DNA from: an uncultured delta proteobacterium
GTDB lineage: Bacteria > Myxococcota_A > Polyangia > Palsa-1104
Assembly: GCA_963785725.1 (NCBI GenBank)
Contig: CAWAWS010000007.1
Span: forward strand, 299,238 to 363,237
DNA length: 64,000 nt
Direction of reading: 5' to 3'
The notes beneath the pieces are model-generated. The model made no database searches and had not been told where the DNA came from. It saw only the letters and a program-made list of their open reading frames with translations. The translations under genes were made by a program, and so were the position numbers. Positions within the stretch are counted from its first letter, which is position 1. Each line of letters starts with the position of its first letter. Positions 9,677-63,562 of this stretch are shown in pieces.

Positions 9677-9779
9677 GAATCCTCCGGTCGGAAAGGCTAC
9701 CTCATACGAATCTGATCGTATAACGTCAAGACCACATCATTAAGCAGGCTTACGGAACGTTGCCTAACGGGAGTTTTTC

Positions 9780-38695: not shown

Positions 38696-38815
38696 AAGAG
38701 CGCGACTGGCTGCGTCGTGTCTCAGATTTGTACGGTGGTGAGTGGCGCCGGTCGCGACGATCCGACTGGCACGATAGGTGCGATAGCCGTCCCCTTTTCA
38801 CATCGAGGAGCTTCT

Positions 38816-40162: not shown

Positions 40163-41439
40163 TCTGAAGGTGAATCTGGCCGGCATCGAGTCGCCCAATC
40201 CGTTCTGGCTGGCCTCGGCGCCGCCGACGAATACCGGCGATCAGGTGATGCGCGCGTTCGACGCCGGTTGGGGCGGCGCGGTGTGGAAGACGCTGGGCGA
40301 GCCCATCGTCAATGTCTCTTCGCGCTATTCGACCGTCGATATGAATGGTCAGAAGGTCATGGGGCTCAACAACATCGAGCTCATTACCGATCGGCCGTTG
40401 GCGGTCAATTTGCGGGAGATTACCGAGGTCAAGAAGCGTTATCCCAAGCATGCGCTCGTGGTCTCGCTGATGGTGGAATCGAAGCGCGAGAAGTGGCACG
40501 AGATCGTCAAAGCGGCCGAAGGCGCGGGCGCGGACGGGCTGGAGTTGAACTTCGGCTGCCCGCACGGCATGAGCGAGCGCGGCATGGGCTCGGCCGTCGG
40601 ACAGGTGCCCGATTACGCCTGTCAGATTACCGAGTGGGTCAAAGAAGCGGCGAAAACGCCGGTGATCGTGAAGCTGACGCCCAATGTCACCGACGTCGAT
40701 CTATCCGGCGCGCGCGGCGAAGAAGGGCGGCGCCGACGCGGTGTCGTTGATCAATACGATCAATTCGATTACCGGCGTCGATCTGGATACGTTTACGCCG
40801 CGGCCGGATGTCGGCGGACGTTCGGCGCACGGCGGATATTGCGGACCGGCCGTGAAACCGATCGCGTTGAATATGGTTTCGTCGATCGCCAAAGACGCGC
40901 AGGTGCGTTTGCCGATATCGGGAATCGGCGGCATCTCCAATTGGCGCGACGCCGCCGAGTTCATGCTGCTGGGCGCGACGACGGTGCAAGTGTGCACGGC
41001 CGTGATGCACTACGGCTTCCGCGTCGTCGAGGATATGATCGACGGGTTATCGAATTACTGCGATGAAAAGGGTTTTCGCAGCGTAAACGATCTGATCGGC
41101 CGCTCTTTGCCGGCGGTTTCGCGCTGGGAAGAATTGGACCTCAATTACAAGATCGTGGCCCGCGTCGATCAGGACAAATGCATCGGCTGCGGCATCTGTT
41201 ACGCCGCTTGCACCGACGGCGCGCATCAATCGATCGCGGCGCGGCCGGAGCACGGGCGCACGCACGTCGAGATCATCGAGTCTACGTGTGTCGGCTGTAA
41301 TTTGTGCTCGTTGGTTTGTCCGGTCGACGGCTGCATCAGCATGGTGCGCGTCGACGGTGGACGGCCGCCGCTGACGTGGAAAGAATATCAAGCTGACCCG
41401 AGCGCGCATAAGCATCTCGGTCCGCATAACGCTCACTAA
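40155..41439 (+). CDS. preA: Dihydropyrimidine dehydrogenase subunit PreA (DHOD-like TIM barrel plus C-terminal 2x[4Fe-4S]), frameshift near 40700
   Basis: The N-terminal frame reads ...VIVKLTPNVTDV, then the sequence continues in another frame as ...ARAAKKGGADAVSLINTINS... to CIGCGICYAACTDGA...CVGCNLCSLVCPVDGC. Confidence 0.8.
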
Positions 41440-41448
41440 GAGGTTCCC

Positions 41449-42912: not shown

Positions 42913-42952
42913 CAGACAGACATAGAACGGCTATCAACAGACAGACATAAAC

Positions 42953-43297
42953 ATGCAGCTCGAAGCACTGACATTGACGGCGCGGGATTTGAAGCGAGCG
43001 CGCCAGTTCTACGCCGGCAAGCTGGGATTCGCGGTGCTGGTGGAGAGCGAACGCTCGATCGTGCTCGACGCCGGCGGCGTTTTTCTGCAGCTCGCCGCCG
43101 ACGGCGTGCGCGCGCCGCTCGACGCGTCCGAGCCGCGCCTGGCGTTTCGTACGACCGACTTGTGGCAGCGCTGCGCGGCGCTGCGCGATCTCGGCGTCAG
43201 TGTGGACGGGCCGCTGCAAAACGAGGGCGGCGACGGGCGGCACGCGGAATTGCGCGATCCGGACGGACACCCGATTACGTTGTGGGAGAAACGATGA
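42953..43297 (+). CDS. VOC/glyoxalase-family protein
   Basis: 114 aa with a glyoxalase-like fold sequence (LTARDLKRARQFYAGKLGF...). Confidence 0.6.
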   Translation: MQLEALTLTARDLKRARQFYAGKLGFAVLVESERSIVLDAGGVFLQLAADGVRAPLDASEPRLAFRTTDLWQRCAALRDLGVSVDGPLQNEGGDGRHAELRDPDGHPITLWEKR

Positions 43298-44172
43298 CGA
43301 AGCGGACTGTGAAGTGCGGCTTGATTCAGGCGTCGAACCCGATCAACGACGAGAAGCGTCCGGTCGCCGAGATCCAAGCGGCGATGTACGAGAAGCATTT
43401 GCCGCTGATTGAAAAGGCGGGAAATGAGGGCGTGAAGATCTTGTGTCTGCAAGAGATCTTCAATGGACCTTACTTCTGTCCGTCGCAGGATTCGCGCTGG
43501 TACGACGCGGCGGAGGCGGTGCCGGGGCCGACGGTGAACAAGCTGGCGGCGATCGCCAAGAAGTTCGGAATGGCGATGGTCGTGCCGGTCTATGAGCGGG
43601 AAATGGCCGGCGTTTATTACAATACCGCGGCGGTTCTCGATCACGACGGCAGTTATCTCGGGAAATATCGCAAGAATCATATTCCGCAGGTCAATCCCGG
43701 GTTTTACGAGAAGTATTATTTCAAGCCGGGAAATCTCGGTTATCCGGTGTTCAAGCTGTCGTCGGGCGTCACGATCGGCGTCTATATTTGTTACGACCGC
43801 CATTTCCCGGAAGGCGCGCGCCTGTTGGGTTTGCATGGCGCCGAGATCGTCTTCAATCCGTCGGCGACGGTCGCCGGTTTGTCGCAATATCTTTGGAAGC
43901 TCGAGCAGCCGGCGCACGCAGTGGCCAACGGTTATTTCATGGGCTGCATCAATCGCGTCGGCACCGAAGCGCCGTGGAATATCGGTAAATTCTATGGCTC
44001 GTCCTATTTCGTCGACCCGCGCGGCAACTTCTTGGCGACGGCGTCGGAAGATCAGGACGAATTGGTCGTCGCCGAGCTCGATTTGAGCGCGATCGAAGAG
44101 ACGCGGCGGACCTGGCAGTTCTTCCGCGATCGCCGACCGGACAGCTATGGCGACATGGTAAAGGACGTTTGA
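43294..44172 (+). CDS. Beta-ureidopropionase / N-carbamoyl-beta-alanine amidohydrolase (nitrilase superfamily)
   Basis: CGLIQASNP..., EKAGNEGVKILCLQE (catalytic Glu), K of the triad, ...GVYICYDRHFPE (Cys of the triad). ATGA overlap with the upstream gene. Confidence 0.85.
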   Translation: MTKRTVKCGLIQASNPINDEKRPVAEIQAAMYEKHLPLIEKAGNEGVKILCLQEIFNGPYFCPSQDSRWYDAAEAVPGPTVNKLAAIAKKFGMAMVVPVYEREMAGVYYNTAAVLDHDGSYLGKYRKNHIPQVNPGFYEKYYFKPGNLGYPVFKLSSGVTIGVYICYDRHFPEGARLLGLHGAEIVFNPSATVAGLSQYLWKLEQPAHAVANGYFMGCINRVGTEAPWNIGKFYGSSYFVDPRGNFLATASEDQDELVVAELDLSAIEETRRTWQFFRDRRPDSYGDMVKDV

Positions 44173-44179
44173 TAGCGCC

Positions 44180-45571
44180 ATGCGCACATTGATTCAGAAT
44201 GGAACGTGCGTAACCGCGAGCGATATGTTCGCCGCCGATGTATGGATCGAGAACGGCAAGATCACGGCGCTGACACAACCGGGAACCAAGCTCGGTAACG
44301 CCGATAAGATCATCGATGCGACGGGGAAATATGTGATTCCCGGCGGAATCGACGCGCATACGCACCTCGATATGCCGTTTGGCGGCACCAGCTCGATCGA
44401 TGACTTCGAGTCGGGAACGCTGGCGGCGGCGCACGGCGGCACCACGACGATCGTCGATTTCGCAATTCAGAAGAAGGGCGGATCGCTGCGCGAGGCGCTC
44501 GATACCTGGCACGCCAAAGCCGAAGGTAAAGCCTTGGTGGACTATGCGTTTCATATGATCGCGACCGATATGCCGCCCAGTGTGCTGTCGGAGATGGGCG
44601 CGATCGTCAATGAAGGCGTCACCAGCTTCAAGATGTTCATGGCCTATCCGGGCGTGCTCATGCTCGACGACCAGTCGATCTTTCGCGCCATGCTGCGCGC
44701 GGGAGAGCTGGGCGCGCTCATTTGCATGCACGCGGAGACGGGACTGCCGATAGACGTGCTCGTCGAACGTGCGATAGCAGCCGGACATACGGCGCCGATC
44801 TATCACGCGCTGACGCGGCCGGAAGTGGCGGAGGCGACGGGGACCGATCGCGCCATCGCGCTCGCGGAGATGGCGAAAGTGCCGGTCTATATCGTGCATT
44901 TGTCGGCGCAGCGCGCGCTCGAACGCGTCATGGAAGCGCGCGATCGCGGGCTGCCGGCGTATGCCGAGACCTGTCCTCAGTATCTGTTCTTGAGCGAAGA
45001 TGACTTACGCGGCACGCCCAATGACGAGTTCGAAGGCGCCAAGTATGTCTGCACGCCGCCGTTGCGTCCCAAGCATCACCACGAGCATTTATGGCGCGGG
45101 CTGCGCAATCACGACCTGCAAGTCGTCTCGACCGACCATTGCCCGTTCTGCATGAAGGGGCAAAAAGAGCTGGGCAGAGGCGACTTTTCGAAGATCCCCA
45201 ATGGCATGCCGGGGATCGAGACGCGTTTGCATTTGTTGTACGAAGGCGTGCGCGAGAAGCGCATTTCGCTCAATCGCTTCGTCGAGATTACGGCGACGGC
45301 GCCGGCGAAGATCTTCGGGCTCTATCCGCGCAAAGGCACGATCGCCATCGGCGCCGATGCCGACGTCGTGGTGTGGGATCCCGAGAAGCGCTTCGAGCTG
45401 TCGCATAAGAATCTGCATATGCGCGCGGACTATGCGGCGTATGAAGGCAAGACGGTCATCGGCGCGCCGGCGCAAGTGTTGTCGCGCGGCGAAATCATCG
45501 TCGATAATGATAAAACGATCGGCAAAAAAGGGCGCGGGCAGTTCGTGCGCCGGGGGACTTTCTCTTTATGA
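44180..45571 (+). CDS. Dihydropyrimidinase / D-hydantoinase
   Basis: GGIDAHTHLDMPFGG (metal-binding HxH), carboxylated-Lys region, cyclic amidohydrolase fold over the full length. Confidence 0.88.
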   Translation: MRTLIQNGTCVTASDMFAADVWIENGKITALTQPGTKLGNADKIIDATGKYVIPGGIDAHTHLDMPFGGTSSIDDFESGTLAAAHGGTTTIVDFAIQKKGGSLREALDTWHAKAEGKALVDYAFHMIATDMPPSVLSEMGAIVNEGVTSFKMFMAYPGVLMLDDQSIFRAMLRAGELGALICMHAETGLPIDVLVERAIAAGHTAPIYHALTRPEVAEATGTDRAIALAEMAKVPVYIVHLSAQRALERVMEARDRGLPAYAETCPQYLFLSEDDLRGTPNDEFEGAKYVCTPPLRPKHHHEHLWRGLRNHDLQVVSTDHCPFCMKGQKELGRGDFSKIPNGMPGIETRLHLLYEGVREKRISLNRFVEITATAPAKIFGLYPRKGTIAIGADADVVVWDPEKRFELSHKNLHMRADYAAYEGKTVIGAPAQVLSRGEIIVDNDKTIGKKGRGQFVRRGTFSL

Positions 45572-46917
45572 GCACGGACGACGTTCGCGAAATCTCAGGT
45601 AAGCACACCTATGGCACTTGGCGGCGGCAAAAGGGGTTCAACCCGCTCAACATCGTCGACGCCGAAGGCTCGTACTTCACCGACTCGAGCGGCAAGCGCT
45701 ACCTCGATCTGTCGAGCCAGCTCATGTGCTCGAACCTTGGGCCACAAGAATCGCGCCGTCATCGACGCCATCAAGCGGCAAGCCGAGGAATTGGCGTTCA
45801 TCGCGCCCGGCTACACGACCAAGGCGCGCTCGGAGCTATGTAACGAGCTATTGACGGTACTGCCCACAGGACTGACGAAATACTTCTTTACGACCTCGGG
45901 CACGGAAGCGAACGAGGCGGCGATCAAGATCGCGCGGCTTTACACCGGTAAGCACAAGATCATCTCGCGCTACGCCAGCTATCACGGCTCGACGGCGGGA
46001 TCGATCTCGCTGACCGGCGATTTCCGTCGCTGGCCGTCCGAGCCGTTCGACACCGTGCCGGGCACGGCGTTCGCGCCCGACGTCAACTGCTATCGCTGCC
46101 CGCTCAAGAAGTCGCACCCCGAGTGCGGCATCGCCTGCGCCGATTACACCGAGTACATGATCGAGCGCGAAGGCAATGTCGCGGCGATGATCATCGAGCC
46201 CATCGTCGGTACCAATGGCATCTTGGTGCCGCCGAAGGAATATCTCGTCAAGCTACGCGCGATAACGAAGCGACATAACGTGCTGCTCATCGCCGACGAG
46301 GTCATGACCGGCTGGGGTCGCACCGGCGATTGGTTCGCGGTCAATCAGGGCGGCGACGGCCACGCCATCGTCCCCGAATTTTGTGCACCGCCAAAGGCAT
46401 CACCGGCGCCTATGTGCCGCTCGGTCTGTGTGCGACGACGGAAGAGATCGCCGACTTCTTCAATGAACGCTACTTCGCGCACGGACATACCTATGAGGCG
46501 CATCCGCTGACGCTTGGCGCCGGCGACGGCGGCGATCCGCGAGTACAAGCGACTTGAACCTCATCGAGCGTTCGCGGACGATGGGCGAGCTGCTCGGCCA
46601 GAAGCTGGCGGCGATCAAAGAGAAGCATCCGTCGCGTCGGTGACGTGCGCGGCCGCGGGCTCTTCTATGCCGTCGAGCTGGTCAAAGATCGCGCCAAGAA
46701 GACGCCGTTCAATACGCCGGCGGAGAAGCTGGAAGGCAAGCCGCTCGTCATCGATCAAGTGACGGCGAAGATGATGGGCGCGGGCGTCGCCTGTCTCGGC
46801 TGGATCAGCCACCTCGTCATCGCGCCGCCGCTCATCGTCACCGAGGCCGAGCTCGACGAAGGCTTGCGCGTGCTCGACGACGCGCTCACCGTCGCCGACG
46901 CGCACGTGGCGGCGTGA
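45568..46917 (+). pseudogene. Class III (omega) aminotransferase, beta-alanine/pyruvate type, disrupted by about 4-5 single-base indels (around 45737, 46378, 46510, 46549, 46634)
   Basis: The conserved AT-III sequence is distributed across all three frames: ...YLDLSSQLMCSNLG | HKNRAVIDAIKRQAEELAF...LIADEVMTGWGRTGDWFA | ILCTAKGITGAYVPLG...HGHTYEAHPLTL | AAIREYKRL | NLIERSRTMGELLGQKLAAIKEKHPS | VGDVRGRGLFYAVELV... Confidence 0.8.
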
Positions 46918-48450
46918 TGCCGCGCGGCGCCGATGATCCACGCGACATCGGCGCCGGCACCGTCGTCGGCGGCGAGATCCGCCACGCCGACGGGCGCGTC
47001 GAGCTCGACGCGGCGACGACGCGCGAAATCGAGTCCAGCCCGCTCTTCAATCACGATCTGGCGCCCGTGCGCGTCGCCGAGCGCACGTGGACCACGTACA
47101 ACTACGCCGCGCTCTGGATCTCGATGGCGCACTGCATTCCCACGTACATGCTGGCGTCGGGACTCATCGGCGCCGGCATGTCGTGGTGGCAGGCGCTCGT
47201 CACCATCTTGCTCGGCAACATGATCGTGCTCGTGCCCATCCTCGCCAACTCGCACCCCGGCACGAAGTACGGCATCCCGTTTCCCGTCTTCGCGCGCGCC
47301 GCTTACGGCACCTCCGGCGCGAACCTGCCGGCGCTGATGCGCGCGATCGTCGCGTGCGGCTGGTTCGGCATTCAGTGCTGGATCGGCGGCGAGGCGTTGC
47401 ACACGTTCTTTAGCGCCGCGTTCCCGTGGTGGCGACATACGCTGGCTATCGCACCTGCGAATGGCGGCCACGCGCTCGGCGAATGGATCGGCTTCGCGCT
47501 CTTCTGGCGCATCAACATCGCCGTCGTCTTCCGCGGCATGGAGCTACTGCGCAAAGTGGAGAACTGGGCCGCGCCGTTCGTCCTCGTGATGACGACGTTC
47601 TTCGTCGTTTGGGCCTTGAAGCGCGCGCACGGCTTGGGCGCGATCATGGCGCAGCCCGGTAAGATTCCGCGATTTTCCGTCGTTCTTCAAAGTGTTCGTC
47701 CCGTCGCTGACCGCGATGATCGGCTTCTGGGCCACGCTGTCGCTCAACATGCCCGACTTCACGCGCTTCGGTCGCTCGCAGCGCGAGCAGATGCTCGGCC
47801 AGGTCGTCGCGCTGCCGACGACGATGACGGTCTTCGCCGCGATGGGCGTCATCATCACGTCCGCCAGCGTCCTCATCTACGGCCAAGCCATCTGGGATCC
47901 GGTGAGCTTGGTCGGCAAGTTCACGCAGCCGTGGCTCGTCGCCATCGCGATGTTCACCGTCGTCGTCGCCACGCTCAGCGTCAACATCGCCGCCAACGTC
48001 GTCTCGCCCGCCAACGATTTCGCCAACGCCTTCCCGCGCCACATCGGCTTTCGCATGGGCGGTCTCATCACCGGCGTCGTCGGCGTCGTCATGCTGCCGT
48101 GGAAGCTCATCGCCGATCCCTCGGGCTACATCTTCAAGTGGCTGCTCGGCTATTCCGGCGGCCTCGGCTCGATCGCGGGCGTGCTCATCGCCGATTATTT
48201 CATCGTGCGCAATAAACGCCTCAACCTCGCCGACCTCTATCGCGCGGGCGGCGAATATCATTATCGCGGCGGCTGGAACCTCCCGGCCGTCGCCGCGACG
48301 CTGCTCGGCTGCGGCTTGGCCTGGGCCGGCGCCGTCGTCCCGGCGCTGGCCGCGCTCTACGATTACGCCTGGTTCGTCGGGTTCATCGTCGCCGCCGTCG
48401 CTTACTTGGCGCTGGCACGAGCATCTGGCCCGCGTTCGGTTCAAGCTTAA
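46914..48450 (+). CDS. NCS1-family nucleobase/hydantoin permease, frameshift near 47680
   Basis: NCS1 N-terminus ...SPLFNHDLAPVRVAERTWTTYNYAALW..., with the remaining TM helices in the 47692..48450 frame (...FANAFPRHIGFRMGGLITGVVGVVMLPW...). Confidence 0.75.
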
Positions 48451-53522: not shown

Positions 53523-53702
53523 AAAATCGAAAATTACACAATTGCTACAAATACATGCGATTGCAGGCTTGTGTAACAGTTGGGCACATTTTTGGCCAAT
53601 TCGTGGCCGTCGTTTCGGCGCTCGGCCGCTCACCATTGGTCGAGCCATTCGACGCGTTCTCGACGAGTGACACCTCGCCGAGCGCGTGCTATCGCACTGA
53701 AC

Positions 53703-54410
53703 ATGAGTCGTGCGCCGCTGACGGACTACGAGAAATACATCCGCACCGATGAGCTGTTGGCGCTGCAAAAGCCCGAGGATCAGCTCAGCTGCCACGACGA
53801 GATGCAGTTTCAGGTCGTGCATCAAGTGGCCGAGCTGTGGATGAAGCTGTGCGAGCACGAGCTGACCTTCGCCGCCGCGCGCATGAAAGAGAACGCCGTG
53901 GCGCGCGCGATGCGGGCGCTGGCGCGCGTGCGCGGCATTCAGGTGCTGCTGATGGACCAGCTGGCGCTGCTCGACACGATGGCGCCGCGCGACTACATGA
54001 CCATCCGTAACGCGCTCGGTCGCGGCTCGGGGCAGGAGTCGCCGGGGTTTCGCCGCATGCTGCAGCTGCCGGAAGAGGTGTGGCCGGCGTTCGCGCAGCT
54101 GCTGGAGGCGCGCGGCGTGACGCTGCGGCAGATCTACGAGGCGCCCGACTCGCAGCCGGAGCTGTTCAACCTCGCCGAAGGGCTCATCGACTACGATCAG
54201 AGCCTGCAAGCGTGGCGGATGCGCCATCTGCTCATCGTCTATCGCCAGATCGGCGCGGGGACGCCGTCGCTGAAGGGCAAGGCGTCGGACCTGCTCGCCG
54301 AAGGGCTGAAGCATCGCTTCTTCCCGAAGCTGTGGGACGTCCGCGACGAGCTGTTCGCCGAATGGACGCGCACACACCCATATGGCGCCGAGAAGGGCTA
54401 CCACGGCTGA
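53703..54410 (+). CDS. kynA: Tryptophan 2,3-dioxygenase
   Basis: ...LTDYEKYIRTDELLALQKPEDQLSCHDEMQFQVVHQVAELWMKL..., TDO family. Confidence 0.85.
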   Translation: MSRAPLTDYEKYIRTDELLALQKPEDQLSCHDEMQFQVVHQVAELWMKLCEHELTFAAARMKENAVARAMRALARVRGIQVLLMDQLALLDTMAPRDYMTIRNALGRGSGQESPGFRRMLQLPEEVWPAFAQLLEARGVTLRQIYEAPDSQPELFNLAEGLIDYDQSLQAWRMRHLLIVYRQIGAGTPSLKGKASDLLAEGLKHRFFPKLWDVRDELFAEWTRTHPYGAEKGYHG

Positions 54411-54438
54411 CCGATCCGTGATAGCGCTGAGCGCGACC

Positions 54439-55587
54439 ATGACGGACGATCTCCTCCGCTGGCGCGCCGAATTTCCCGCGCTCGAACGTTCGGTGTACAT
54501 GGTCTCGCATTCGCTCGGCGCGATGCCCAAACGCGCTTACGAGCATCTGCGAGGCTTCGCCGATCTGTGGGTCAACAAGGGCATCAACGCGTGGGATGAT
54601 TGGATCCCCGAGGTCGAGCGCGCGGGCGAGCGCATCGGCCGCATCATCGGCGCGCCCGCCGGCACCGTGGCGATGGCGACGAACGTGTCGCAGATTCAGG
54701 CGCTCGTCGCCAGTTGCCTCGACTACACGCCCGCGCGCAACAAGATCGTCTTCACGGCGCTCAATTTCCCGACGGTGAGCTACGTCTGGCACGAGGAGCG
54801 GCGGCGCGGCGCCGACGTCGTGGTCGTGCCCGGCGGCGACGGCGTGCACGCGCCGATGGACGCGCTCTTGGCGGCGATCGACGAACGCACGCTGATGGTG
54901 CCGATCTCGCACGTGCTCTTCCGCTCGTCGGCGATCAAAGACGTGGCCGCGGTCGTCAAGCGCTGTCAGGAAGTGGGCGCGCTGGTGATGCTCGATTGCT
55001 ATCAGTCGACGGGCACGGTGCCGCTCGACGTGACGGCGCTGGGCGTCGATTTCGCGTGCGGCGGCTCGGTCAAGTGGCTGTGCGGCGGCCCGGGCGCGGC
55101 CTACTTGTACGTGCGGCCCGATCGGATTCCGCAGTTCGCGCCGCGCAACACCGGCTGGTTCGGCAACGTCAAGCCGTTCGCGTTCACGATGCCGGAGCAG
55201 ACCTACGCGCCCAATATTTGGCGTTATATGGCGGGGACGCCGGCGATCGTCGCGCTCTATCAAGCGCGCGCGGGCGCCGAGATCGTGGCCGAGATCGGCG
55301 TCGCCAACATTCGCAAGAAGTCGCTCAGGCAGACGGCGCGCGTGCTGGCGAAGTGCGACGAGCGCGGCTGGAAGGTGAACACGCCGCGCGCCGAAAACGA
55401 GCGCGGCGGCAGCGTCTGCTTCGACTTCGCGGGCAGCGACCAGGTCGCGCGCGGCTTGAATGCGAGCGGCTTTTTGTGCGACTGGCGCCCGCAATCGGGC
55501 ATCCGAATGTCGCCCCATTTTTACACCAGCGACGACGAGGTCGAGCGCTTCCTCGACGAAGTCGCGCGTCTGCAAGGCACCACGTGA
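54439..55587 (+). CDS. kynU: Kynureninase (PLP-dependent)
   Basis: ...FPALERSVYMVSHSLGAMPKRAYEHL...LDCYQSTGTVPLDV...GGSVKWLCGGPG... Confidence 0.85.
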   Translation: MTDDLLRWRAEFPALERSVYMVSHSLGAMPKRAYEHLRGFADLWVNKGINAWDDWIPEVERAGERIGRIIGAPAGTVAMATNVSQIQALVASCLDYTPARNKIVFTALNFPTVSYVWHEERRRGADVVVVPGGDGVHAPMDALLAAIDERTLMVPISHVLFRSSAIKDVAAVVKRCQEVGALVMLDCYQSTGTVPLDVTALGVDFACGGSVKWLCGGPGAAYLYVRPDRIPQFAPRNTGWFGNVKPFAFTMPEQTYAPNIWRYMAGTPAIVALYQARAGAEIVAEIGVANIRKKSLRQTARVLAKCDERGWKVNTPRAENERGGSVCFDFAGSDQVARGLNASGFLCDWRPQSGIRMSPHFYTSDDEVERFLDEVARLQGTT

Positions 55588-55597
55588 GGAACGAACG

Positions 55598-55993
55598 ATG
55601 AATACGCCCATCAATCCGCGCGAGCTCGGCACACCGCGCGGCTACTCCAACGGCATGCTGGCGCCGCCCGGACGCATGCTCGCCATCGCCGGTCAGATCG
55701 GTTGGGACGGCACGGGCAAGCTCGTGTCCGACGACTTCGCGCAGCAGTTCAACCGCGCGCTCGGCAACGTCTTGGCCGTCTTGCACGAGGCCGGCGGCGT
55801 GCCCAGCGATTTGATCACGCTGCGCATTTACGTCGTGGATAAGCAGCGTTATTTGGCGCAAACGAAGGAGATCGGCGCGATCTATCGCGAGCTCATGGGG
55901 ACGCATTATCCGGCGATGGCGCTGCTGCAAGTGGCCGATCTGCTCGAGCCGGGCGCGCAGGTCGAGATCGAAGGGTTGGCGGTGATCTCCTGA
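55598..55993 (+). CDS. RidA/YjgF-family enamine/imine deaminase
   Basis: ...PRGYSNGMLAPPGRMLAIAGQIGWDG...PAMALLQVADLLEPGAQVEIEGLAV. Confidence 0.8.
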   Translation: MNTPINPRELGTPRGYSNGMLAPPGRMLAIAGQIGWDGTGKLVSDDFAQQFNRALGNVLAVLHEAGGVPSDLITLRIYVVDKQRYLAQTKEIGAIYRELMGTHYPAMALLQVADLLEPGAQVEIEGLAVIS

Positions 55994-56787
55994 TCGCGCC
56001 CAAGAGCTTCCGTTATGCCGTCGAGGATCATATTGCGACGATCACGCTCGATCGGCCGGAGACGCTCAATTCGCTGACGTTCGAGGTCTACGCCGAGCTG
56101 CGCGACTGTTTCCGCGCGCTCGAGAACGAAGCCGAGGTGCACGCCATCGTCATCACCGGCGCCGGGCGCGGCTTCTGCAGCGGCGGCAGCGTCAACGACA
56201 TCATCGGCCCCTTGTTCGCCATGTCCGCCGTCGAGCGCATGGCGTTCACGCGCATGACGGGCGATCTCATCGGCGCCATTCGTCAGCTGCGTAAGCCGGT
56301 GGTCGCGGCCATCAACGGCGTCGCGGCGGGCGCGGGCGCGGTCATCGCGCTGGCGTGCGACTTCCGCGTCATGTCGGAGAAGGCGAAAATAGCGTTCCTG
56401 TTCGTCAAGGTCGGGTTGGCGGGCGCGGATATGGGCGCGGCCTGGCTGTTGCCGCAAGTGGTCGGCTTGGCGCGCGCGACCGAGATCTTGATGCTCGGCG
56501 ATCCGGTCGTCGCCGCCGACGCGCTGCGCATCGGTTTGGCCAATCGCGTCGTCGCGCCGGAGCAGGTGGTGACCGAAGCGCGCGGGCTGGCCGAGCGGCT
56601 GGCGCGCGGGCCGCGGTTTGCGCTCGGGATGACGAAGGAGATGTTGAACCGCGAGCCGCAGCTGACGCTGGAGGCGGCGTTGGAAGCGGAAGCGCAGGCG
56701 CAGCAGATCTGCATGGCGACCGAGGATTTCCGCGAGGCGTACGAGGCGTTCACGGGCAAGCGCGAGCCGAAGTTTACCGGGAAGTAG
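55990..56787 (+). CDS. Enoyl-CoA hydratase/isomerase family protein (start codon unclear; no canonical in-frame start)
   Basis: ...ATITLDRPETLNSL...AIVITGAGRGFCSGGSVNDI...AAINGVAAGAGAVIALACDFRV... The frame is open far upstream without ATG/GTG/TTG, which suggests a non-canonical start or a lost start codon. Confidence 0.7.
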   Translation: MIAPKSFRYAVEDHIATITLDRPETLNSLTFEVYAELRDCFRALENEAEVHAIVITGAGRGFCSGGSVNDIIGPLFAMSAVERMAFTRMTGDLIGAIRQLRKPVVAAINGVAAGAGAVIALACDFRVMSEKAKIAFLFVKVGLAGADMGAAWLLPQVVGLARATEILMLGDPVVAADALRIGLANRVVAPEQVVTEARGLAERLARGPRFALGMTKEMLNREPQLTLEAALEAEAQAQQICMATEDFREAYEAFTGKREPKFTGK

Positions 56788-57006
56788 CCCGTCGCCGCGC
56801 GAGGCGTGCGCCGAGTGCAATCGAGCGAGCGTTCTTGTGGCGCACGGCGAGGACGCAACTTTTGGACGGGAACGGCGATAAAGGGGAGGGTGGTCGGGGG
56901 AATTCCATCGAGCCCACCATCCTCCGGACCTGTAGAGCGCGCGCCTCTCGGTATCCATGTGTCGAAGTCGTCGGTAAACGCAATCCATGAGCAACGGAGC
57001 GGGACG

Positions 57007-58119
57007 ATGATCGGCTTCCTCGAAGAGCGGCACATCGCGTTGCGCTATCGCGCGCAGGCTTGGGTCGACGCGGCCGGGCTGGAGAATGACCACGATCCGG
57101 CCGAGCTCGTCGCGCGGCTGGCGCGTCACGAGCTCTTGCGCGCCTGCGTGCCGGCGGCGTACGGCGGCCTGCGCGAGCGCGTCGAATTGCGCGACTTGTG
57201 CGTGCTGCGCGCGGTCATCGGCTATCGATCGTCGCTCGCCGACACGATGTTCGCCATGCAGGGCCTCGGCAGCTATCCGGTGACGCTGGCTGGCACCGAA
57301 GCGCAGAAGCAGGCGCTCTTGCCGTCGGTGGCGAATGGTCAAACCATTTGCGCGTTCGCGATCACCGAGCCGGAAGCGGGCAGCGACGTGTCGAGCGTCA
57401 GCACGCGCGCGGTCCGCGACGGCGATGGCTACGTCATCGACGGCGTCAAATGCTTCATCAGCAACGCCGGGCTCGCGCACTCGTACGTGCTGTTCGCGCG
57501 CACGTCGGACGATCGGCATCGCGGCCTCACGGCGTTCCTCGTCGACGGCAAAGCCAATGGTTTAACCATTACGCCGACCGAGCTCATCGCGCCGCATCCC
57601 ATCGGCACGGTGACGTTGCGCGGCGTGCGCGTGCCGGCGTCGGCGCGCGTGGGCGAGGAGGGCCAAGGCTTTCAGCTGGCGATGGCGACGCTCGATTTCT
57701 TCCGCACGTCGGTGGGCGCGGCGGCGTTGGGCATGGCGGCGCGCGCGCTCGACGAAGCCAAGGCGCGCGTCAAGGCGCGGCGGCAGTTCGGCAAGGCCCT
57801 GAGCGAGTTTCAGGGCACGCAGATCGCGCTCGCCGACATGGCCGTCGACGTCGCGGCGTCGCGGCTGTTGGTGTTCTCGGCGGCGCAGCGCATCGACGGC
57901 GCCGATCAGCCGGGCAGCGTCGACGCGGCGATGGCCAAGCTGTACGCGACGGAGGCGGCGCAGCGCGTCGTCGATCGCGCCGTGCAGCTATTCGGCGGGC
58001 AAGGCGTGGTGGCCGGCTGTATCGTCGAGCGGCTCTATCGGGAAGTGCGCGCGCTCAGAATTTACGAGGGCACGAGCGAGATCCAAAAGCTCGTCATCGC
58101 CAAGGCGCTGCTGCGCTGA
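57007..58119 (+). CDS. Acyl-CoA dehydrogenase
   Basis: ...[21 protein letters not shown]...[10 protein letters not shown]... C-terminal ...[43 protein letters not shown]. Confidence 0.85.
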
Positions 58120-58246
58120 AACGCGCGGTCCACGGGCATTTACGCGACAGTCGACACGCGGCGGGCGCGCAGGGCGGGCGCGCGCATCGGGCGACTGCGC
58201 TCGGCAGCGTGCTCGTCGGGGCGTCCGACGCGACATTCGACGGCAT

Positions 58247-58443
58247 GCATCATCGCTGGTTCGGCGCGGAATGCGACGGCGTGCACTATCGCGCGGTCGG
58301 CGCAGAATGTGACGGCATGCGCCATCGCGTGTTCGGCGCGGAATGCGACGGCATGCGCGATGGCGCGTTCGGCGCGGAATGCGACGGCATGCGCGATGGC
58401 GCGTTCGGCGCGGAATGCGACGGCATGCGCGATGGCGCGTTCG
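58247..58443. repeat. Tandem repeat array, 36-bp unit TTCGGCGCGGAATGCGACGGCATGCGCGATGGCGCG, about 5-6 copies (3 identical, upstream copies diverged)
   Basis: Direct reading of 58247-58443. Intergenic, between the ACAD stop (58119) and the ferredoxin start (58584). Confidence 0.85.
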
Positions 58444-58583
58444 ACGAGCAAGCGACGGCCTATTTGCTGCTCGGCTCGGTCGCGCATCCGACGGGGGCGT
58501 TCGATAGCGCTGTCGCGCTGCGCGGATCGCGATAAATTACAGCTCGCGGCGCTGACGCGTTCGCAAAGGGAATGGTTCAACCA

Positions 58584-58949
58584 ATGCCGCATTACGAGAA
58601 GCACGTCTTCATCTGCACCAACGAGCGCGACAAAGACAACCCGAAGGGCGACTGCGCGCGCCGCGGCTCCGACGACATTCGCGACGCGTTCAAGAAGGGC
58701 ATTCACGAGCGCGGCTTGAAGGGGCGCATGCGTGCCAACGCGGCCGGCTGCCTCGACCAGTGCGCGTTCGGGCCCACCGTCGTCGTCTATCCCGAGCAGG
58801 TTTGGTACTCGGTGCCGACGCGCGCGGACGCCGAGGAGATCATCGAGAAGCACTTGGTCGGCGGTGTTCCCGTCGAGCGGCTGCTGTTGCGCACGAACAA
58901 GGACAAAGAGCAGGACAAAGCCGGCAAGGAAGGCAAAGAGCCCAAATGA
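58584..58949 (+). CDS. Thioredoxin-like [2Fe-2S] ferredoxin-domain protein
   Basis: ...HVFICTNERDKDNPKGDCARRGSDDI...AAGCLDQCAFGPTVVVYPEQVWY... An alternative in-frame ATG at 58572 would give MVQPMPHYEK. The start is embedded in the AATGGTTCAACCAATG motif. Confidence 0.75.
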   Translation: MPHYEKHVFICTNERDKDNPKGDCARRGSDDIRDAFKKGIHERGLKGRMRANAAGCLDQCAFGPTVVVYPEQVWYSVPTRADAEEIIEKHLVGGVPVERLLLRTNKDKEQDKAGKEGKEPK

Positions 58950-59200
58950 AGAAGCCGCAAATTCTCGTCGGTGTGGCCGGGCTGGCGCTCGGTCTGTTGC
59001 TCGGCGGCGCGTTCATCGGTCGCGCGCATGCGCAGCAGCCGGGCGCACGCTTTCAGTACATGTGCCAGACGAAGCTGAACAAAATCTGGACCCCCGAAGC
59101 GCAAGCCAGGCTCAACGAGCTGGGAAGCCAGGGCTGGCAGCTCTTGCCCACGCGCAGCCCAATGAACGAGGACGTCTATTGCTACGAGCGTCGCTTCTGA
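58946..59200 (+). CDS. Small secreted protein (84 aa, signal peptide, 2 Cys)
   Basis: MKKPQILVGVAGLALGLLLGGAFIGRAHA signal. ATGA overlap with the ferredoxin stop. Confidence 0.55.
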   Translation: MKKPQILVGVAGLALGLLLGGAFIGRAHAQQPGARFQYMCQTKLNKIWTPEAQARLNELGSQGWQLLPTRSPMNEDVYCYERRF

Positions 59201-59235
59201 ATGGTTTAACCAATCTTCGGATTGGTTAAACCACT
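59200..59235. repeat. Inverted pair of AATGGTTTAACCAAT-type units separated by CTTCGG (36-bp near-perfect hairpin)
   Basis: AATGGTTTAACCAAT cttcgg ATTGGTTAAACCACT, overlapping the stop (TGA 59198-59200) of the small protein and the 5' region of the OYE gene. Confidence 0.8.
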
Positions 59236-59248
59236 CGTCGCTGCCGTC

Positions 59249-60707
<1,459 letters not shown>

Positions 60708-60724
<17 letters not shown>

Positions 60725-60743
60725 AGGGAATGGTTAAACCAAT
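60708..60743. repeat. Tandem pair of AATGGTT(G/A)AACCAAT units separated by AAAGGG
   Basis: The first unit encodes the C-terminal KWLNQ and contains the TAA stop of the OYE gene. The second contains the ATG (60742) of the CoA-ligase gene. The spacer AAAGGG is a plausible RBS. Confidence 0.8.
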
Positions 60744-62283
60744 GACAACGCCAAGTGAGACGACGTTTCAGCCGCAATTCCCCGAGCAGTTCAACATGGC
60801 GCGCTACTTCCTCGACGCGCGGATCGAAGAGGGGCGCGGCGATCACGTCGCCATCATCGACGACAGCGGGCAGTACACCTATCGCCAGGTGCAAGCGATG
60901 GCGAATCAGGTGGGCAACGCGCTGACGGCGATGGGCGTGGGCGTCGAAGATCGCGTGCTCATCGGGCTCTTCGACAGCGTCGAGTTCGCGGCGGCGTTCT
61001 TCGGCATCTTGAAGATCGGCGCCGTCGTGACGATGGTGAATCCCGAGCTGCCCGACGGCGATTATCAGCACTACCTCGACTACACGCGGGCGCGCGCGCT
61101 CATCGGCGACATTGGTTTGACCAATCGCATTGCGCCCATGATCGAGAGCTCGAAGCTGTTGCGCGGCGTCTTGAGCGCCGGCGGAAATTGGGCGGCGAAG
61201 GTCGGCGGCGCGTCGACGGAGCTCGTGAACTTCGACAGCTCCAAGGACGATCCGTCGGTGTGGCTGTTCACGTCGGGATCGACGGGGAAACCGAAGGGCG
61301 CCGTGCATCTGCAGCATGATTTTGCGTACAACACCGAGTGCTACGCCAAGCCGGTGCTGAAGATGCGCGCCGACGACGTGACGCTCGGCGTGCCCAAGCT
61401 GTTCTTCGGCTACGCGACGGGCAGCGACTTGATGTTCCCGTTTGCCGTCGGTGCGACGGCCGTGTTGTTTCGCGAGCGGGCGACGCCGGAGAAGGTGCTC
61501 GAGCTGTGCGCCAAGCACCAGGTCACGGTGCTGACGAGCGTGCCGACGATGATCAACAAGATGGTGCAGGCGGTGGGCGGCAAGCGTTCGCTGGCGCCGT
61601 TGCGCGCGGTGATTTCGGCGGGTGAGGCGCTGCCGGCCGAGCTCTATCACCGCTGGATGGAGACGTTCGGCGTCGAGATCCTCGACGGTATCGGGTCCGC
61701 CGAGCTGTTCCATATTTACATCACGAATCGACCGGGCGAGGCCAAGCCGGGGTCGCTCGGGCGCATCGTGCCCGGCTACGAGGCGAAGATCGTCGGCGCC
61801 GACGGCAACGTCGTCCCCGACGGTGAAATCGGCACGCTGTGGGTCAAGGGCGACTCGGCGGCGATCTGCTATTGGCAGGCGCACGAGAAGTCCAAAGAGG
61901 TGTTGCGCGGCGATTGGGTCGTGTCGGGAGACCTGTTTCGGCGCGACGGTGAGGGCTACTATTATTATGCCGGCCGCGCCGACGACATGCTGAAAGTGGG
62001 CGGCATTTGGGTGTCGCCGCTGGAGGTGGAGTCGTGTTTGCTGCGGCATCCGAACGTGCTGGAGGCGGCGGTCGTCGGCTACGAGGATGACGACGGGCTG
62101 GTGAAGTCGTTGGCGTTCGTGGTTCTGCGGGATGCGACGGCGTCGGACGAGCTGGCGCGCGGGATTATCGAGCACGCCAAGAGTCAGCTCGTGCATTACA
62201 AGGCGCCGCGGAAGGTGGAGTTCGTGGCGGCGCTGCCGCGGAGTGACCGGGGGAAGATCCTGCGGCGCGAGCTGCGGACGTGA
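60742..62283 (+). CDS. Benzoate-CoA-ligase-family aryl-CoA ligase (candidate anthranilate/2-aminobenzoate-CoA ligase)
   Basis: ...ARYFLDARIEEGRGDHVAII... AMP-binding motif LFTSGSTGKPKGAVH, ...GYGATG-like YATGSD, and a C-terminal ...HYKAPRKVEFVAALPRSDRGKILRREL. Confidence 0.85.
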   Translation: MTTPSETTFQPQFPEQFNMARYFLDARIEEGRGDHVAIIDDSGQYTYRQVQAMANQVGNALTAMGVGVEDRVLIGLFDSVEFAAAFFGILKIGAVVTMVNPELPDGDYQHYLDYTRARALIGDIGLTNRIAPMIESSKLLRGVLSAGGNWAAKVGGASTELVNFDSSKDDPSVWLFTSGSTGKPKGAVHLQHDFAYNTECYAKPVLKMRADDVTLGVPKLFFGYATGSDLMFPFAVGATAVLFRERATPEKVLELCAKHQVTVLTSVPTMINKMVQAVGGKRSLAPLRAVISAGEALPAELYHRWMETFGVEILDGIGSAELFHIYITNRPGEAKPGSLGRIVPGYEAKIVGADGNVVPDGEIGTLWVKGDSAAICYWQAHEKSKEVLRGDWVVSGDLFRRDGEGYYYYAGRADDMLKVGGIWVSPLEVESCLLRHPNVLEAAVVGYEDDDGLVKSLAFVVLRDATASDELARGIIEHAKSQLVHYKAPRKVEFVAALPRSDRGKILRRELRT

Positions 62284-62776
62284 CGGCGGCGGGCGCGGGG
62301 TTCGCGGCGGGCGCGGGGTTCGCGCGAGGCGCTCGGGGCGCGACGTTGGCGGCGGATGAGGCGACGTGCGCGATGTTCGCAACAGGCGAGACGACGTGCG
62401 CGATATTCGCGGCGGCTGGCGCGATGTTCGCGACATGCGAGGCTCGGGGCGCGACGTTGGCGGCGGATGAGGCGACGTGCGCGATGTTGGCGGCAGGCGA
62501 AATGACGCGCGCGATATCCGCGGCGGCTACGGCCATGGGCATGTTGTTCGCGGCTGGCGAAACAACGAGCGCGACGTTCGCGATGTTCGCGTCCCGGCAA
62601 CCGACGGTCGCGATGGTCGCGGCAGGGGAGTTCGCGCGAGGCGGCGCGGCCGTCATGTTGGGCGCGGAGCAGGCGCTCGAAGGCGCGTCGGCGACGCGCG
62701 CCGACGGTGCGTTCGCGAGGCGCGCGACCGCGCAATGCGCGTCGGCGACGCGCGCGACCACCGCTCGAGCCGACGC
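62284..62776. repeat. Degenerate tandem repeat region (about 30-33-bp period, core ...GACGTGCGCGAT(G/A)TTCGCG...), including a 46-bp exact duplication
   Basis: CTCGGGGCGCGACGTTGGCGGCGGATGAGGCGACGTGCGCGATGTT occurs twice (about 62330 and about 62441), and there are many TGCGCGATGTTCGC / CGCGATATTCGC variants. Intergenic, between the CoA ligase and the creatininase-family gene. Confidence 0.7.
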
Positions 62777-63535
62777 GTGAGGCGCCTCGGCGAGCTGACC
62801 TGGCCCGAAGCCGAAGCCCTGCGCGCGCGCGAGCCGATCATGCTCGTGCCGATCGGCTCCACCGAGGCGCACGGCCCGCACTTGCCGCTGGCCACCGACA
62901 CTATCTTGTCCGACGAGCTGGCGCTGCGCGCCGCCGCTGCGCTCGAAGCCGACGGATACGCCGCCGTCATCGCGCCCGCGCTCGCCTACGCCATCACCGA
63001 CTATGCCGGCGATTTCCCGGGCACGATCTCGCTGACCGCTGCGACCGCCGTCGCAGTTTTATCGGACATCTGCAGCTCGCTCATCGGTCGCGGCTGGCGT
63101 CGCGTCTGCCTCGTCAACAGCCACCTCGAGCCGGCGCACGTGACGTCGCTGAAGGACGCTTGCGCGCAGGCGTTCGCGCGCACCGGCGTCAACGTCGCGT
63201 TCGCCGATCAGCTCGATCGGCGCTGGGCGCGCACGCTGACCGACGAGTTCAAGCGCGGCGCCTGCCACGCGGGAAGCTACGAGACGTCGCTGGTGCTGGC
63301 GGCGCGACCGGAGCTCGTACGCGACGAGCTGCGCCGCGGATTAGTGGTTAAACCAATCGACCTGGCCAAGGCGATGCGCGAAGGCAAGCGGACGTTCATC
63401 GAGGCCGGCGCCGACCAGGCGTACTTCGGCGACCCGGCGGGCGCTACGGTTGAAGAGGGCAACGACATCTACGCGCGGCTGGTGGTCATGGTCGTCGAGA
63501 CCGTGCGCGCCGCGTGGCCAATCGAGAATGGTTAA
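62777..63535 (+). CDS. Creatininase-family amidohydrolase (start GTG 62777 or ATG 62735)
   Basis: ...LGELTWPEAEALRAREPIMLVPIGSTEAHGPHLPLATDTIL... ...GACHAGSYETSLVLA..., typical creatinine amidohydrolase / ArfB / MftE fold motifs. Confidence 0.75.
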   Translation: MRRLGELTWPEAEALRAREPIMLVPIGSTEAHGPHLPLATDTILSDELALRAAAALEADGYAAVIAPALAYAITDYAGDFPGTISLTAATAVAVLSDICSSLIGRGWRRVCLVNSHLEPAHVTSLKDACAQAFARTGVNVAFADQLDRRWARTLTDEFKRGACHAGSYETSLVLAARPELVRDELRRGLVVKPIDLAKAMREGKRTFIEAGADQAYFGDPAGATVEEGNDIYARLVVMVVETVRAAWPIENG

Positions 63536-63562
63536 ACCAATTTCGAAATTGGTTTAACCATT
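63527..63562. repeat. Perfect 36-bp palindrome AATGGTTAAACCAATTTCGAAATTGGTTTAACCATT
   Basis: The reverse complement is identical to the forward sequence. It overlaps the last codons (ENG) and the TAA stop (63533-63535) of the creatininase-family gene. Confidence 0.9.

Follow-up and report, generated by a model that had tools for sequence, protein, structure and literature searches.

The window analysed here, a 64-kb stretch of DNA from a Polyangia-like myxobacterium, carries nine intact genes that run co-directionally on the plus strand between positions 53700 and 63535, with GC3 values of 0.79–0.87. Pfam and NCBIfam profile searches matched all nine genes to the families claimed for them in an earlier reading made without database searches (the sequence-only reading). 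The operon begins with a short, divergent tryptophan 2,3-dioxygenase (TDO; 53700–54410, 236 aa, PF03301) and a divergent kynureninase-family PLP enzyme (54436–55587, PF00266 plus the KYNU_C domain PF22580). These are followed by a RidA-family imine/enamine deaminase (55595–55993, PF01042), a crotonase-family enoyl-CoA hydratase of the PRK08258 type (ECH; approximately 55996–56787, start codon uncertain, NF006107), an acyl-CoA dehydrogenase matching all four ACAD Pfam domains (ACAD; 57004–58119), a Trx-like [2Fe-2S] ferredoxin (58572–58949), a 500-aa OYE-family flavoprotein (OYE500; 59222–60724, PF00724), an aryl-CoA ligase of the benzoate-CoA-ligase family (LIG-C; 60730–62283, TIGR02262), and a creatininase-family metal amidohydrolase of 252 aa (CRE; 62777–63535, PF02633), the candidate aryl-formamidase of this study. 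Ligase, RidA, crotonase and ACAD are united in one operon, a combination expected of an abm-type cluster. Of the 2-aminobenzoyl-CoA monooxygenase/reductase (ACMR), the OYE part alone is present: the N-terminal FAD monooxygenase domain had no match across the 64-kb window. Genes for SDR, MarR and a thioesterase, which fuller clusters have besides the monooxygenase, are missing as well, so the pathway encoded here may be incomplete.

Two of the spacers are repetitive: a 36-bp tandem repeat of 6.2 copies (58238–58459) lies between ACAD and the ferredoxin, and GC-rich tandem repeats (62286–62755) fill the 493-bp gap between the ligase and CRE. Pairs of the palindrome TGGTTWAACCA lie just upstream of the OYE500 start (59202–59233), across the ligase start codon (60710–60741), and at the CRE stop codon (63529–63560), where they form a perfect 32-nt palindrome. 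Within the window, this operator-like element is common to OYE500, the ligase and CRE.

Tryptophan-opening enzymes and the CoA module

The assignment of the first two genes as kynA and kynU held for family and active site, although both products are divergent forms that score far below the NCBIfam equivalog cut-offs. TDO exceeded the PF03301 threshold (107 versus 34.9 bits) and reached 146.8 bits against TIGR03036, below its equivalog cut-off of 390.7. The kynureninase-like enzyme likewise passed the threshold for PF22580 (44.3 versus 27 bits) and scored 132.8 bits against TIGR01814, below the cut-off of 246.4. As controls, Thalassospira KynA and KynU both passed these equivalog cut-offs, with 427.7 and 289 bits, respectively. 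Alignment with Xanthomonas TDO (2NW7) showed that the haem ligand H240 is retained together with Y24, Y27, F51, H55, Y113 and R117, which include the distal His and the carboxylate-binding Arg, that about 30 residues (173–205) are missing, and that the GTGGSSG loop is changed; this short form is also kept in three related loci (L004, L005 and L059). The closest solved relative of the second enzyme was Pseudomonas fluorescens kynureninase (1QZ9, 1.3e-39), with which its PLP lysine and D-x-R carboxylate site align. Family membership and the conserved active-site residues suggest that the short haem TDO would open the indole ring and that the divergent kynureninase would release alanine and an anthranilate-type acid.

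RidA, ECH and ACAD are 42%, 49% and 46% identical to their counterparts in an abm-like cluster of Thalassospira, and ECH exceeded the cut-off of NF006107 (PRK08258; 390 versus 330 bits). RidA had been proposed to quench an enamine from the kynureninase reaction. This proposal did not survive the comparison of loci: RidA follows the CoA module, co-occurring with ECH and ACAD both with and without a kynureninase, and we therefore rejected it as a kynureninase partner. Kynureninase releases alanine and no free enamine. The ligase passed the TIGR02262 cut-off (486.3 versus 375.25 bits), and its best solved relatives, a benzoate-CoA ligase (2V7B, 1.6e-114) and an entry named anthranilate-CoA ligase (4WV3, 1.5e-109), were about equal. 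Homology predicts that it would form a CoA thioester. Its clade, LIG-C, is separate from the ligases of proteobacterial clusters, with 36% identity to a proteobacterial cluster ligase.

The flavoenzyme part of the module varies among related loci. OYE500, whose PF00724 match is interrupted by insertions, has 59–65% identity to orthologues that come after a stand-alone FAD monooxygenase in L018 and L032 and occur together with a fused ACMR-like enzyme in L064, L067 and L074. The ferredoxin, which matched NF041613 (81 bits) and NF041612 (78 bits) below both cut-offs and whose translation shows the cysteine spacing C15-x12-C28-x31-C60-x3-C64, occurred among related loci only in clusters without an FAD monooxygenase. 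At least three versions exist: a fused monooxygenase/reductase, a split monooxygenase plus OYE, and a pairing of OYE and ferredoxin that has no monooxygenase close by. The suggestion that OYE and ferredoxin reductively dearomatise the ring found no support. The same OYE in relatives pairs with an FAD monooxygenase, and direct ring reduction by these two proteins was rejected as the default reading. Judged from aryl-CoA reductases, such a reduction is thermodynamically implausible. By analogy with the abm cluster of Azoarcus, RidA, the crotonase, ACAD and the OYE flavoprotein would process a non-aromatic CoA ester.

The CRE protein and its gene neighbourhoods

CRE matched PF02633 with 193.2 bits (threshold 31.3) over 237 of the 238 profile positions, and fell below the cut-offs for creatininase sensu stricto (TIGR04448; 101.9 versus 235 bits), MftE (TIGR03964; 125.4 versus 172 bits) and IolN (45 versus 245 bits). 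Alignment to Pseudomonas putida creatininase showed that the Glu/His/Asp/His/Glu metal-ligand positions and the catalytic His are retained; we take the roles of these residues to be those they have in the creatininase structure. Across 14 orthologues, E30, H32, D41, H116, E118 and H164 of CRE are invariant. The top Foldseek matches of an AF2 model (pLDDT 82.9) were all creatininase-family chains (TM 0.71–0.74; 0.73 for creatininase), a fold search that adds nothing beyond the creatininase fold itself. Its gene context suggests that CRE works as an amide hydrolase with a binuclear metal site where the tryptophan and CoA modules meet. A search of plasmids gave no CRE orthologue above 36% identity, so that no annotated carrier in culture came to light. 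In the literature searched, nothing relevant connected creatininase to kynurenine formamidase, anthranilate, kynureninase or benzoate-CoA ligase.

Across at least six phyla, 80 genomes have CRE together with one particular aryl-CoA ligase clade, frequently joined by RidA-ECH-ACAD-SDR, by an OYE or ACMR flavoenzyme, and by the TDO/kynureninase pair. This linkage outlasts the shuffling of gene order in Myxococcota, Acidobacteriota, Planctomycetota, Gemmatimonadota, Alphaproteobacteria and Chloroflexota. The most constant partner of CRE is the ligase clade, not TDO: the ligase accompanied CRE in 51 of the 66 loci with at least 2 kb upstream, and TDO/kynureninase lay within 10 kb in only 8 of 27 CRE-centred loci with full flanks. 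Two loci (L036 and L054) combine CRE with TDO, kynureninase and ligase, without ring-processing genes. In an unbiased, ECH-centred metagenome sample, 6 of the 7 clusters that have TDO/kynureninase also carry CRE, against 4 of the 18 that lack the pair (Fisher p = 0.007, uncorrected for phylogeny); about three independent architectures underlie this association. The same sample contained 14 CoA modules without CRE, which places CRE at the periphery of ring processing and led us to reject it as a core ring-processing enzyme. The scanned neighbours of CRE included no mycofactocin or creatinine genes. In five loci (L007, L013, L020, L026 and L034), CRE orthologues lie beside an unannotated 440-aa ORF for a putative SAM-dependent RNA methyltransferase, and two further orthologues (L047 and L080) have no pathway genes nearby.

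The claim that no cyclase-type KynB is encoded here was borne out within the 64-kb window. A regex for the KynB motif found no match in its six frames, and a Hidden Markov Model built from three solved proteins (4COB, 4COG and 4CZ1), which replaced the cruder motif regexes, gave nothing below E = 0.01 against six-frame translations of the window and 95 related loci, with none in the window; its matches to CRE ORFs were marginal (E = 0.012 or worse). For the alpha/beta-hydrolase formamidase, tblastn with three candidate queries returned nothing at 1e-5 in the window or the CRE loci. Neither known type of formamidase was found in the window, nor did 83 CRE loci have either of them within 10 kb, and the CRE loci contained no 3-hydroxyanthranilate dioxygenase, a sign of NAD-type kynurenine clusters. 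No annotated kynB was found beside plasmid-borne kynU of Diaphorobacter, Bacillus F19 or Cupriavidus.

Candidate roles of CRE

We tentatively read the operon as a catabolic route from tryptophan through anthranilate to 2-aminobenzoyl-CoA in which CRE removes the N-formyl group. In this route, as gene context suggests, CRE would strip the formyl group left by the dioxygenase, from either N-formylkynurenine or N-formylanthranilate, and free anthranilate would reach the ligase. Every other step from tryptophan to anthraniloyl-CoA has a candidate gene, and CRE is the sole hydrolase left over. It occupies the place where Proteobacteria carry a different formamidase-type hydrolase: in proteobacterial and Deinococcus clusters, which have no CRE, an alpha/beta hydrolase related to Drosophila kynurenine formamidase (4E11, 5e-21) adjoins kynA/kynU. 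The intact metal and catalytic residues of CRE agree with such a role, for which the amidase upstream of anthranilate-CoA ligase in Arthrobacter Rue61a offers a precedent. CRE is the best candidate for the missing de-formylation step. Its earlier proposal as an N-formylkynurenine deformylase gains from its enrichment with TDO/kynureninase and is weakened by its tightest link, which is to the ligase; the occurrence of CRE with the ligase alone in many genomes is not what a simple replacement of KynB predicts. The genome may also encode KynB or an alpha/beta formamidase outside the window, which would count against CRE as the deformylase. More broadly, CRE could well provide the ligase with anthranilate by hydrolysing an aryl-formamide or aryl-acylamide.

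One unlikely alternative is that CRE hydrolyses aryl-acylamides or other amides and lactams, feeding the ligase from non-tryptophan substrates such as N-acetylanthranilate, anthranilamide, isatin-type lactams or hippurate-like conjugates, with its location beside TDO and kynureninase being secondary. Lone ligase-CRE pairs (7 of the 27 full-flank loci, together with Blastocatellia operons in which ligase and CRE, with or without GNAT and thioesterase, stand alone) would fit such a role, as would the GNAT acetyltransferase that comes after CRE in L002 and L008 and the precedent of an N-acetylanthranilate amidase in Arthrobacter. Creatininase itself opens a cyclic amide. Against this role, CRE adjoins TDO/kynureninase with no ligase close by in L037, L040 and L062, is enriched in TDO-containing clusters, and is accompanied there by no formamidase of a known type. 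It is similarly improbable that CRE works downstream of the ligase, its substrate being a CoA thioester or a by-product specific to the LIG-C clade. In that case, CRE might deformylate N-formylanthraniloyl-CoA, hydrolyse a side-product of the enaminone or lactam kind, or, like IolN, hydrolyse a ring C-C bond. CRE lies near the LIG-C ligase in every judgeable locus and never near the proteobacterial sister-clade ligases, in the relatives L001 and L002 the end of the ligase gene overlaps the start of CRE by 4 bp, and the creatininase family contains the C-C hydrolase IolN, to which CRE has an NCBIfam match. However, clusters with the other ligase clade share RidA, ECH, ACAD, SDR and ACMR without CRE, so that every downstream step is already assigned, and the presence of CRE in loci with TDO/kynureninase and no ligase within 10 kb also speaks against a post-ligase substrate.

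That CRE is a conserved neighbour functionally unrelated to the pathway seems very unlikely. Some orthologues do occur in other contexts (the putative methyltransferase loci, L047 and L080), but the linkage persists through gene-order shuffling from Myxococcota to Chloroflexota, and CRE carries the same operator-like palindrome as OYE500 and the ligase. A more specific form of the deformylase reading, which we consider a long shot, would make the creatininase-fold CRE a third class of bacterial aryl-formamidase, at work in a version of the kynurenine route that keeps the formyl group: the divergent kynureninase would cleave N-formylkynurenine directly to N-formylanthranilate and alanine, and CRE would deformylate the former right before CoA ligation. 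If true, this variant would account for the association of CRE with the ligase and of the proteobacterial alpha/beta formamidase with kynA/kynU, and for the scores below the equivalog cut-offs of both TDO and kynureninase in CRE clusters.

The formamidase step of bacterial tryptophan breakdown lacks an identifiable gene in many genomes, a gap reportedly noted since the first bacterial kynurenine-pathway reconstructions. If CRE is a deformylase, part of this gap would be closed by a creatininase-fold formamidase that several hundred species carry, from at least six phyla with mostly uncultured members, and a function would be assigned to a large orphan clade now annotated as creatinine amidohydrolase. 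The comparison of loci also shows that, in soil and freshwater bacteria, the little-studied 2-aminobenzoyl-CoA route is widely joined to the opening of tryptophan.

Comparison with known systems

CRE has the fold of the characterised PF02633 members creatininase, MftE, IolN and ArfB, with the metal site conserved in alignment, but scores below every curated subfamily cut-off and differs in gene context. ArfB is the one known formamide hydrolase of the creatininase fold. Cyclase-type KynB, a Zn-dependent enzyme (PF04199; motif HxGxHxDxPxH), is likewise a metal-dependent hydrolase, of the same reaction as proposed for CRE, but is unrelated in fold and family.

The abm cluster of Azoarcus evansii, reportedly described by Schuhle and colleagues in 2001, is said to comprise a ligase, the ACMR monooxygenase/reductase, beta-oxidation enzymes, an L-PSP/RidA protein and MarR. 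Like that cluster, the window unites an aryl-CoA ligase, RidA, a crotonase, ACAD and an OYE-type flavoprotein, and its fuller relatives add SDR, MarR and a PRK08255 monooxygenase/reductase (1157 bits; cut-off 1078). What sets the window apart is the lack of an FAD monooxygenase domain, of SDR and of MarR, and the addition of the Trx-like ferredoxin, TDO, the kynureninase-like enzyme and CRE. The aerobic 2-aminobenzoyl-CoA pathway of A. evansii is summarised in PMC4539516.

In Arthrobacter Rue61a, the N-acetylanthranilate amidase Amq, an alpha/beta hydrolase, precedes an anthranilate-CoA ligase and ACMR (PMC3534580). As proposed for CRE, this aryl-acylamide hydrolase frees anthranilate just ahead of CoA ligation in the same neighbourhood; unlike CRE, Amq has a different fold, and its substrate derives from quinaldine, not tryptophan.

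The description of the locus as a tryptophan-to-anthranilate-to-aryl-CoA island of a hybrid, Azoarcus-like type agrees with the match of its gene set to the Azoarcus-type 2-aminobenzoyl-CoA cluster, which also occurs beside kynA/kynU in Proteobacteria. Plasmids pCSC3H3 of Thalassospira marina and pMaD4 of Marinovum algicola carry an alpha/beta hydrolase, kynA and kynU together with ACMR-SDR-MarR-ECH-ACAD-ligase-thioesterase-RidA. Like the window, these clusters join a tryptophan-opening module to a 2-aminobenzoyl-CoA module, but their hydrolase is of the alpha/beta fold, whereas that of the window is the creatininase-fold CRE.

Gene content of the predicted tryptophan catabolic cluster

Given a window G+C of about 66–70%, we picked coding frames by third-position GC and found nine genes running in the same direction across 53700–63535. 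Pfam and NCBIfam assigned them, in order, to a tryptophan 2,3-dioxygenase (TDO) homologue, a kynureninase-family PLP enzyme, RidA, a PRK08258-type crotonase (ECH), an acyl-CoA dehydrogenase (ACAD), a thioredoxin-like [2Fe-2S] ferredoxin, a 500-aa OYE flavoprotein (OYE500; 59222–60724), a benzoate-CoA-ligase-family enzyme and a creatininase-family hydrolase (CRE; 62777–63535), confirming the tryptophan-catabolism gene set claimed in a sequence-only reading. Because groES/groEL and mutY lie upstream on the opposite strand, the cluster begins at the TDO gene. Close relatives have the same arrangement throughout, down to the neighbouring groEL, and the top CRE homologues come from metagenome bins of Polyangia and other Myxococcota.

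The same reading had noted the absence of a cyclase-type formamidase gene (kynB), and this holds within the 64-kb window: neither a motif regex nor a KynB profile built from three solved proteins and run against the six-frame translation gave a match. The profile set (4COB, plus 4COG and 4CZ1 read off alignments) was reached by matching a PA2081 sequence to 4COB. Nor did the window contain an alpha/beta-hydrolase-type formamidase. In related loci, the marginal and non-significant matches to this profile (E = 0.012 to 7) were almost all CRE ORFs, for example L068 9228–9965 and L067 9977–10762, possibly owing to a His/Asp-rich metal motif with superficial resemblance.

The TDO and kynureninase of the window are divergent, scoring 147 and 133 bits against NCBIfam equivalog cut-offs of 391 and 246; KynA (428 bits) and KynU (289 bits) from a proteobacterial version of the cluster both exceed these cut-offs. 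The TDO keeps the haem ligand, the distal His and the carboxylate-binding Arg, and it is a short form missing ~30 residues that is conserved in relatives. The kynureninase-like protein keeps the PLP lysine, and among solved proteins its best match is the kynureninase of P. fluorescens. Gemmatimonadota loci such as L064 (18457–19650) and L071 (17794–18990) encode a second kynureninase-like protein after TDO; it is very divergent, with 23–26% identity to the window protein, no NCBIfam match and a KYNU_C score just at threshold. At L125, which carries neither CRE nor another hydrolase, an alanine dehydrogenase (9329–10453) and an aldehyde dehydrogenase adjoin a RidA–ECH–TDO–kynureninase cluster, the former being consistent with consumption of the alanine that kynureninase releases.

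Several further features were observed in the window. The palindrome TGGTTWAACCA occurs in 7 exact copies, or 13 with at most one mismatch, against 0.07 expected. All copies fall within the ACAD-to-CRE half of the operon (57336–63560), with none upstream of the TDO gene, and they are often paired 21 bp apart across gene starts (59202/59223, 60710/60731 and 63529/63550). The motif fits the operator type TGGT-N3-ACCA bound by FadR-like GntR regulators. Close relatives have a GntR/FCD gene ~3.4 kb downstream of CRE, a position corresponding to just past the window's end, and its divergent spacer holds such a pair. GC-rich tandem repeats (36-bp × 6.2, and 18-, 24-, 30-, 51- and 60-bp units) fill the ACAD–ferredoxin spacer (58238–58459) and the 493-bp ligase–CRE spacer (62286–62755). 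Since the ligase and CRE genes share a 4-bp overlap in relatives, the latter repeats are an insertion that breaks translational coupling. An 84-aa ORF with a signal-peptide-like N-terminus (58946–59200), between the ferredoxin and OYE genes, gave no match in a Pfam scan and is weakly conserved (38%), only in L002 and L003. Outside the cluster, GC drops to 0.60–0.63 across 38672–48447, where reductive pyrimidine catabolism genes encode dihydropyrimidine dehydrogenase parts, an amidohydrolase, an aldehyde dehydrogenase and a class III aminotransferase. Two ORFs (45572–46507 and 46558–46914) share the aminotransferase between them, and a cytosine/purine permease ORF (47620–48447) matches just the C-terminal half of its profile, possibly through frameshifts or pseudogene formation.

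CRE neighbourhoods across phyla and the predicted pathway

CRE represents a distinct, uncharacterised PF02633 clade. It scores under the NCBIfam cut-offs of creatininase, MftE and IolN and shares <36% identity with any plasmid-borne homologue; residues aligning with the metal site of creatininase show no variation, and a confident predicted model shows the creatininase fold. Our literature search returned no paper tying the creatininase family to the kynurenine pathway.

Scanning a CRE-ortholog alignment against one genome per species yielded at least 587 matching stretches and returned 80 loci, from Myxococcota, Acidobacteriota (mostly Blastocatellia), Planctomycetota, Gemmatimonadota, Alphaproteobacteria, Chloroflexota and Nitrospinota. 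According to tblastn and ORF clustering, the ligase neighbours CRE at 57–59 loci (51 of the 66 with at least 2 kb upstream), often with overlapping stop and start, followed by ECH (30), ACAD and SDR (29 each), RidA (28), kynureninase-like genes of two types (21), TDO (19), OYE500 (16), a 752-aa PRK08255-type monooxygenase/reductase (11; 1157 bits, passing the cut-off of 1078), 4HBT thioesterase (10), and MarR and ferredoxin (7 each). The abm cluster of Azoarcus, which serves the 2-aminobenzoyl-CoA route, has this gene content. The 2-aminobenzoyl-CoA pathway is summarised in PMC4539516 and PMC3534580. Homology and context give good support to a route that would lead from tryptophan via anthranilate and 2-aminobenzoyl-CoA to alicyclic CoA esters, and we regard it as probable.

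Two roles assigned in the sequence-only reading did not survive this comparison. RidA, proposed as a kynureninase partner, accompanies ECH, ACAD and SDR with or without kynureninase, as on Phyllobacterium pT1293b and at many loci. Hydrolytic deamination has been described for 2-amino-5-oxocyclohex-1-ene-carboxyl-CoA (PMC3534580), which makes the enamine/imine form of this compound the likely RidA substrate. Reductive dearomatisation had been read from the ligase, OYE500 and the ferredoxin together. In Blastocatellia (L018 2200–4861, L032 2–1799), a stand-alone FAD monooxygenase with 48% identity to the N-terminal half of the 2-aminobenzoyl-CoA monooxygenase/reductase (ACMR) is directly followed by an OYE500 orthologue, so that ACMR is split there, and three Gemmatimonadota loci (L064, L067, L074) carry full-length ACMR together with OYE500. 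Because its orthologues follow the FAD monooxygenase or coexist with full ACMR, the most likely substrate for reduction by OYE500 is a non-aromatic intermediate. Neither the window nor its close relatives contain a monooxygenase, SDR, MarR or thioesterase gene, and the ferredoxin was seen only in clusters that lack the monooxygenase.

Candidate roles of CRE

Gene order around CRE varies widely from phylum to phylum, indicating that its linkage is not simple inherited synteny. We also scanned metagenome contigs with ECH, the best-conserved pathway gene, obtaining 28 contigs of at least 8 kb. CRE was present in six and absent from one with TDO/kynureninase, and present in four and absent from 14 without them (Fisher p = 0.007, kinship ignored; about three independent architectures carry both). 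CRE is thus enriched where the cluster encodes tryptophan opening, and the CoA module (RidA, ECH, ACAD and others) commonly occurs without CRE, speaking against a core function in ring processing.

The tie to the ligase is stronger still. In a ligase tree, a clade that always has CRE nearby stands apart from the proteobacterial cluster ligases, which never do; of the two seeming exceptions, one is a 9-kb gap inside a single cluster and the other a contig that is cut short. The window ligase resembles the benzoate-CoA ligase 2V7B and 4WV3, a solved entry named anthranilate-CoA ligase, to about the same degree. In many genomes, especially of Blastocatellia, the ligase–CRE pair stands alone, TDO and ring-processing genes being absent from the flanking 10 kb. 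A GNAT acetyltransferase (L002 10738–11226, L008 10787–11263) and/or a 4HBT-type thioesterase directly follows CRE in several phyla (L008, L012, L036 and others), and ligase–CRE–GNAT–thioesterase mini-operons occur in Blastocatellia.

A simple replacement of KynB should follow TDO/kynureninase, as an alpha/beta hydrolase does in other clusters; the stronger ligase tie raises alternatives. CRE might act as an amide hydrolase feeding the ligase from non-tryptophan substrates, or it might act after the ligase; we consider each of these unlikely. At L037, L040 and L062, CRE adjoins TDO/kynureninase with no ligase, and in the CRE tree the proteins from these three loci fall among ligase-linked sequences; L036 and L054 comprise just kynureninase–TDO–ligase–x–CRE. 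CRE thus forms a link between the tryptophan-opening module and the ligase, and a step between the two, at which CRE would act, is the best explanation. Given the stronger tie to the ligase, three roles other than plain KynB replacement are possible: removal of the formyl group from N-formylanthranilate once the kynureninase has acted, hydrolysis of other N-acyl-anthranilates, or a reaction coupled to the CRE-linked ligase clade. The proposal that CRE supplies the missing formamidase keeps the support of the TDO enrichment and of an alpha/beta hydrolase that takes the equivalent place elsewhere, and loses ground to the ligase tie. On gene context, it is tentatively the best single hypothesis, and makes CRE a candidate, open to direct testing, for an enzyme that has long been missing.

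Comparison with proteobacterial and Deinococcus clusters

Plasmids and chromids of cultured Proteobacteria (Phyllobacterium, Ralstonia) carry ACMR–SDR–MarR–ECH–ACAD–ligase–thioesterase–RidA. The window ligase shares 36% identity with the ligase of this proteobacterial type and scores 486 bits against TIGR02262, compared with 358. In Thalassospira and Marinovum, the clusters also include kynA, kynU and a divergently transcribed alpha/beta hydrolase, orthologues of which adjoin adjacent kynA/kynU in Azospirillum and Deinococcus. These hydrolases share 51–61% identity, carry an NCBIfam lipase-family label and match Drosophila kynurenine formamidase (5e-21). CRE is absent from all these proteobacterial and Deinococcus clusters, and the alpha/beta hydrolase is absent from every CRE locus. 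The two proteins thus hold equivalent places in otherwise homologous clusters, the pattern expected of non-orthologous displacement at the formamidase step.
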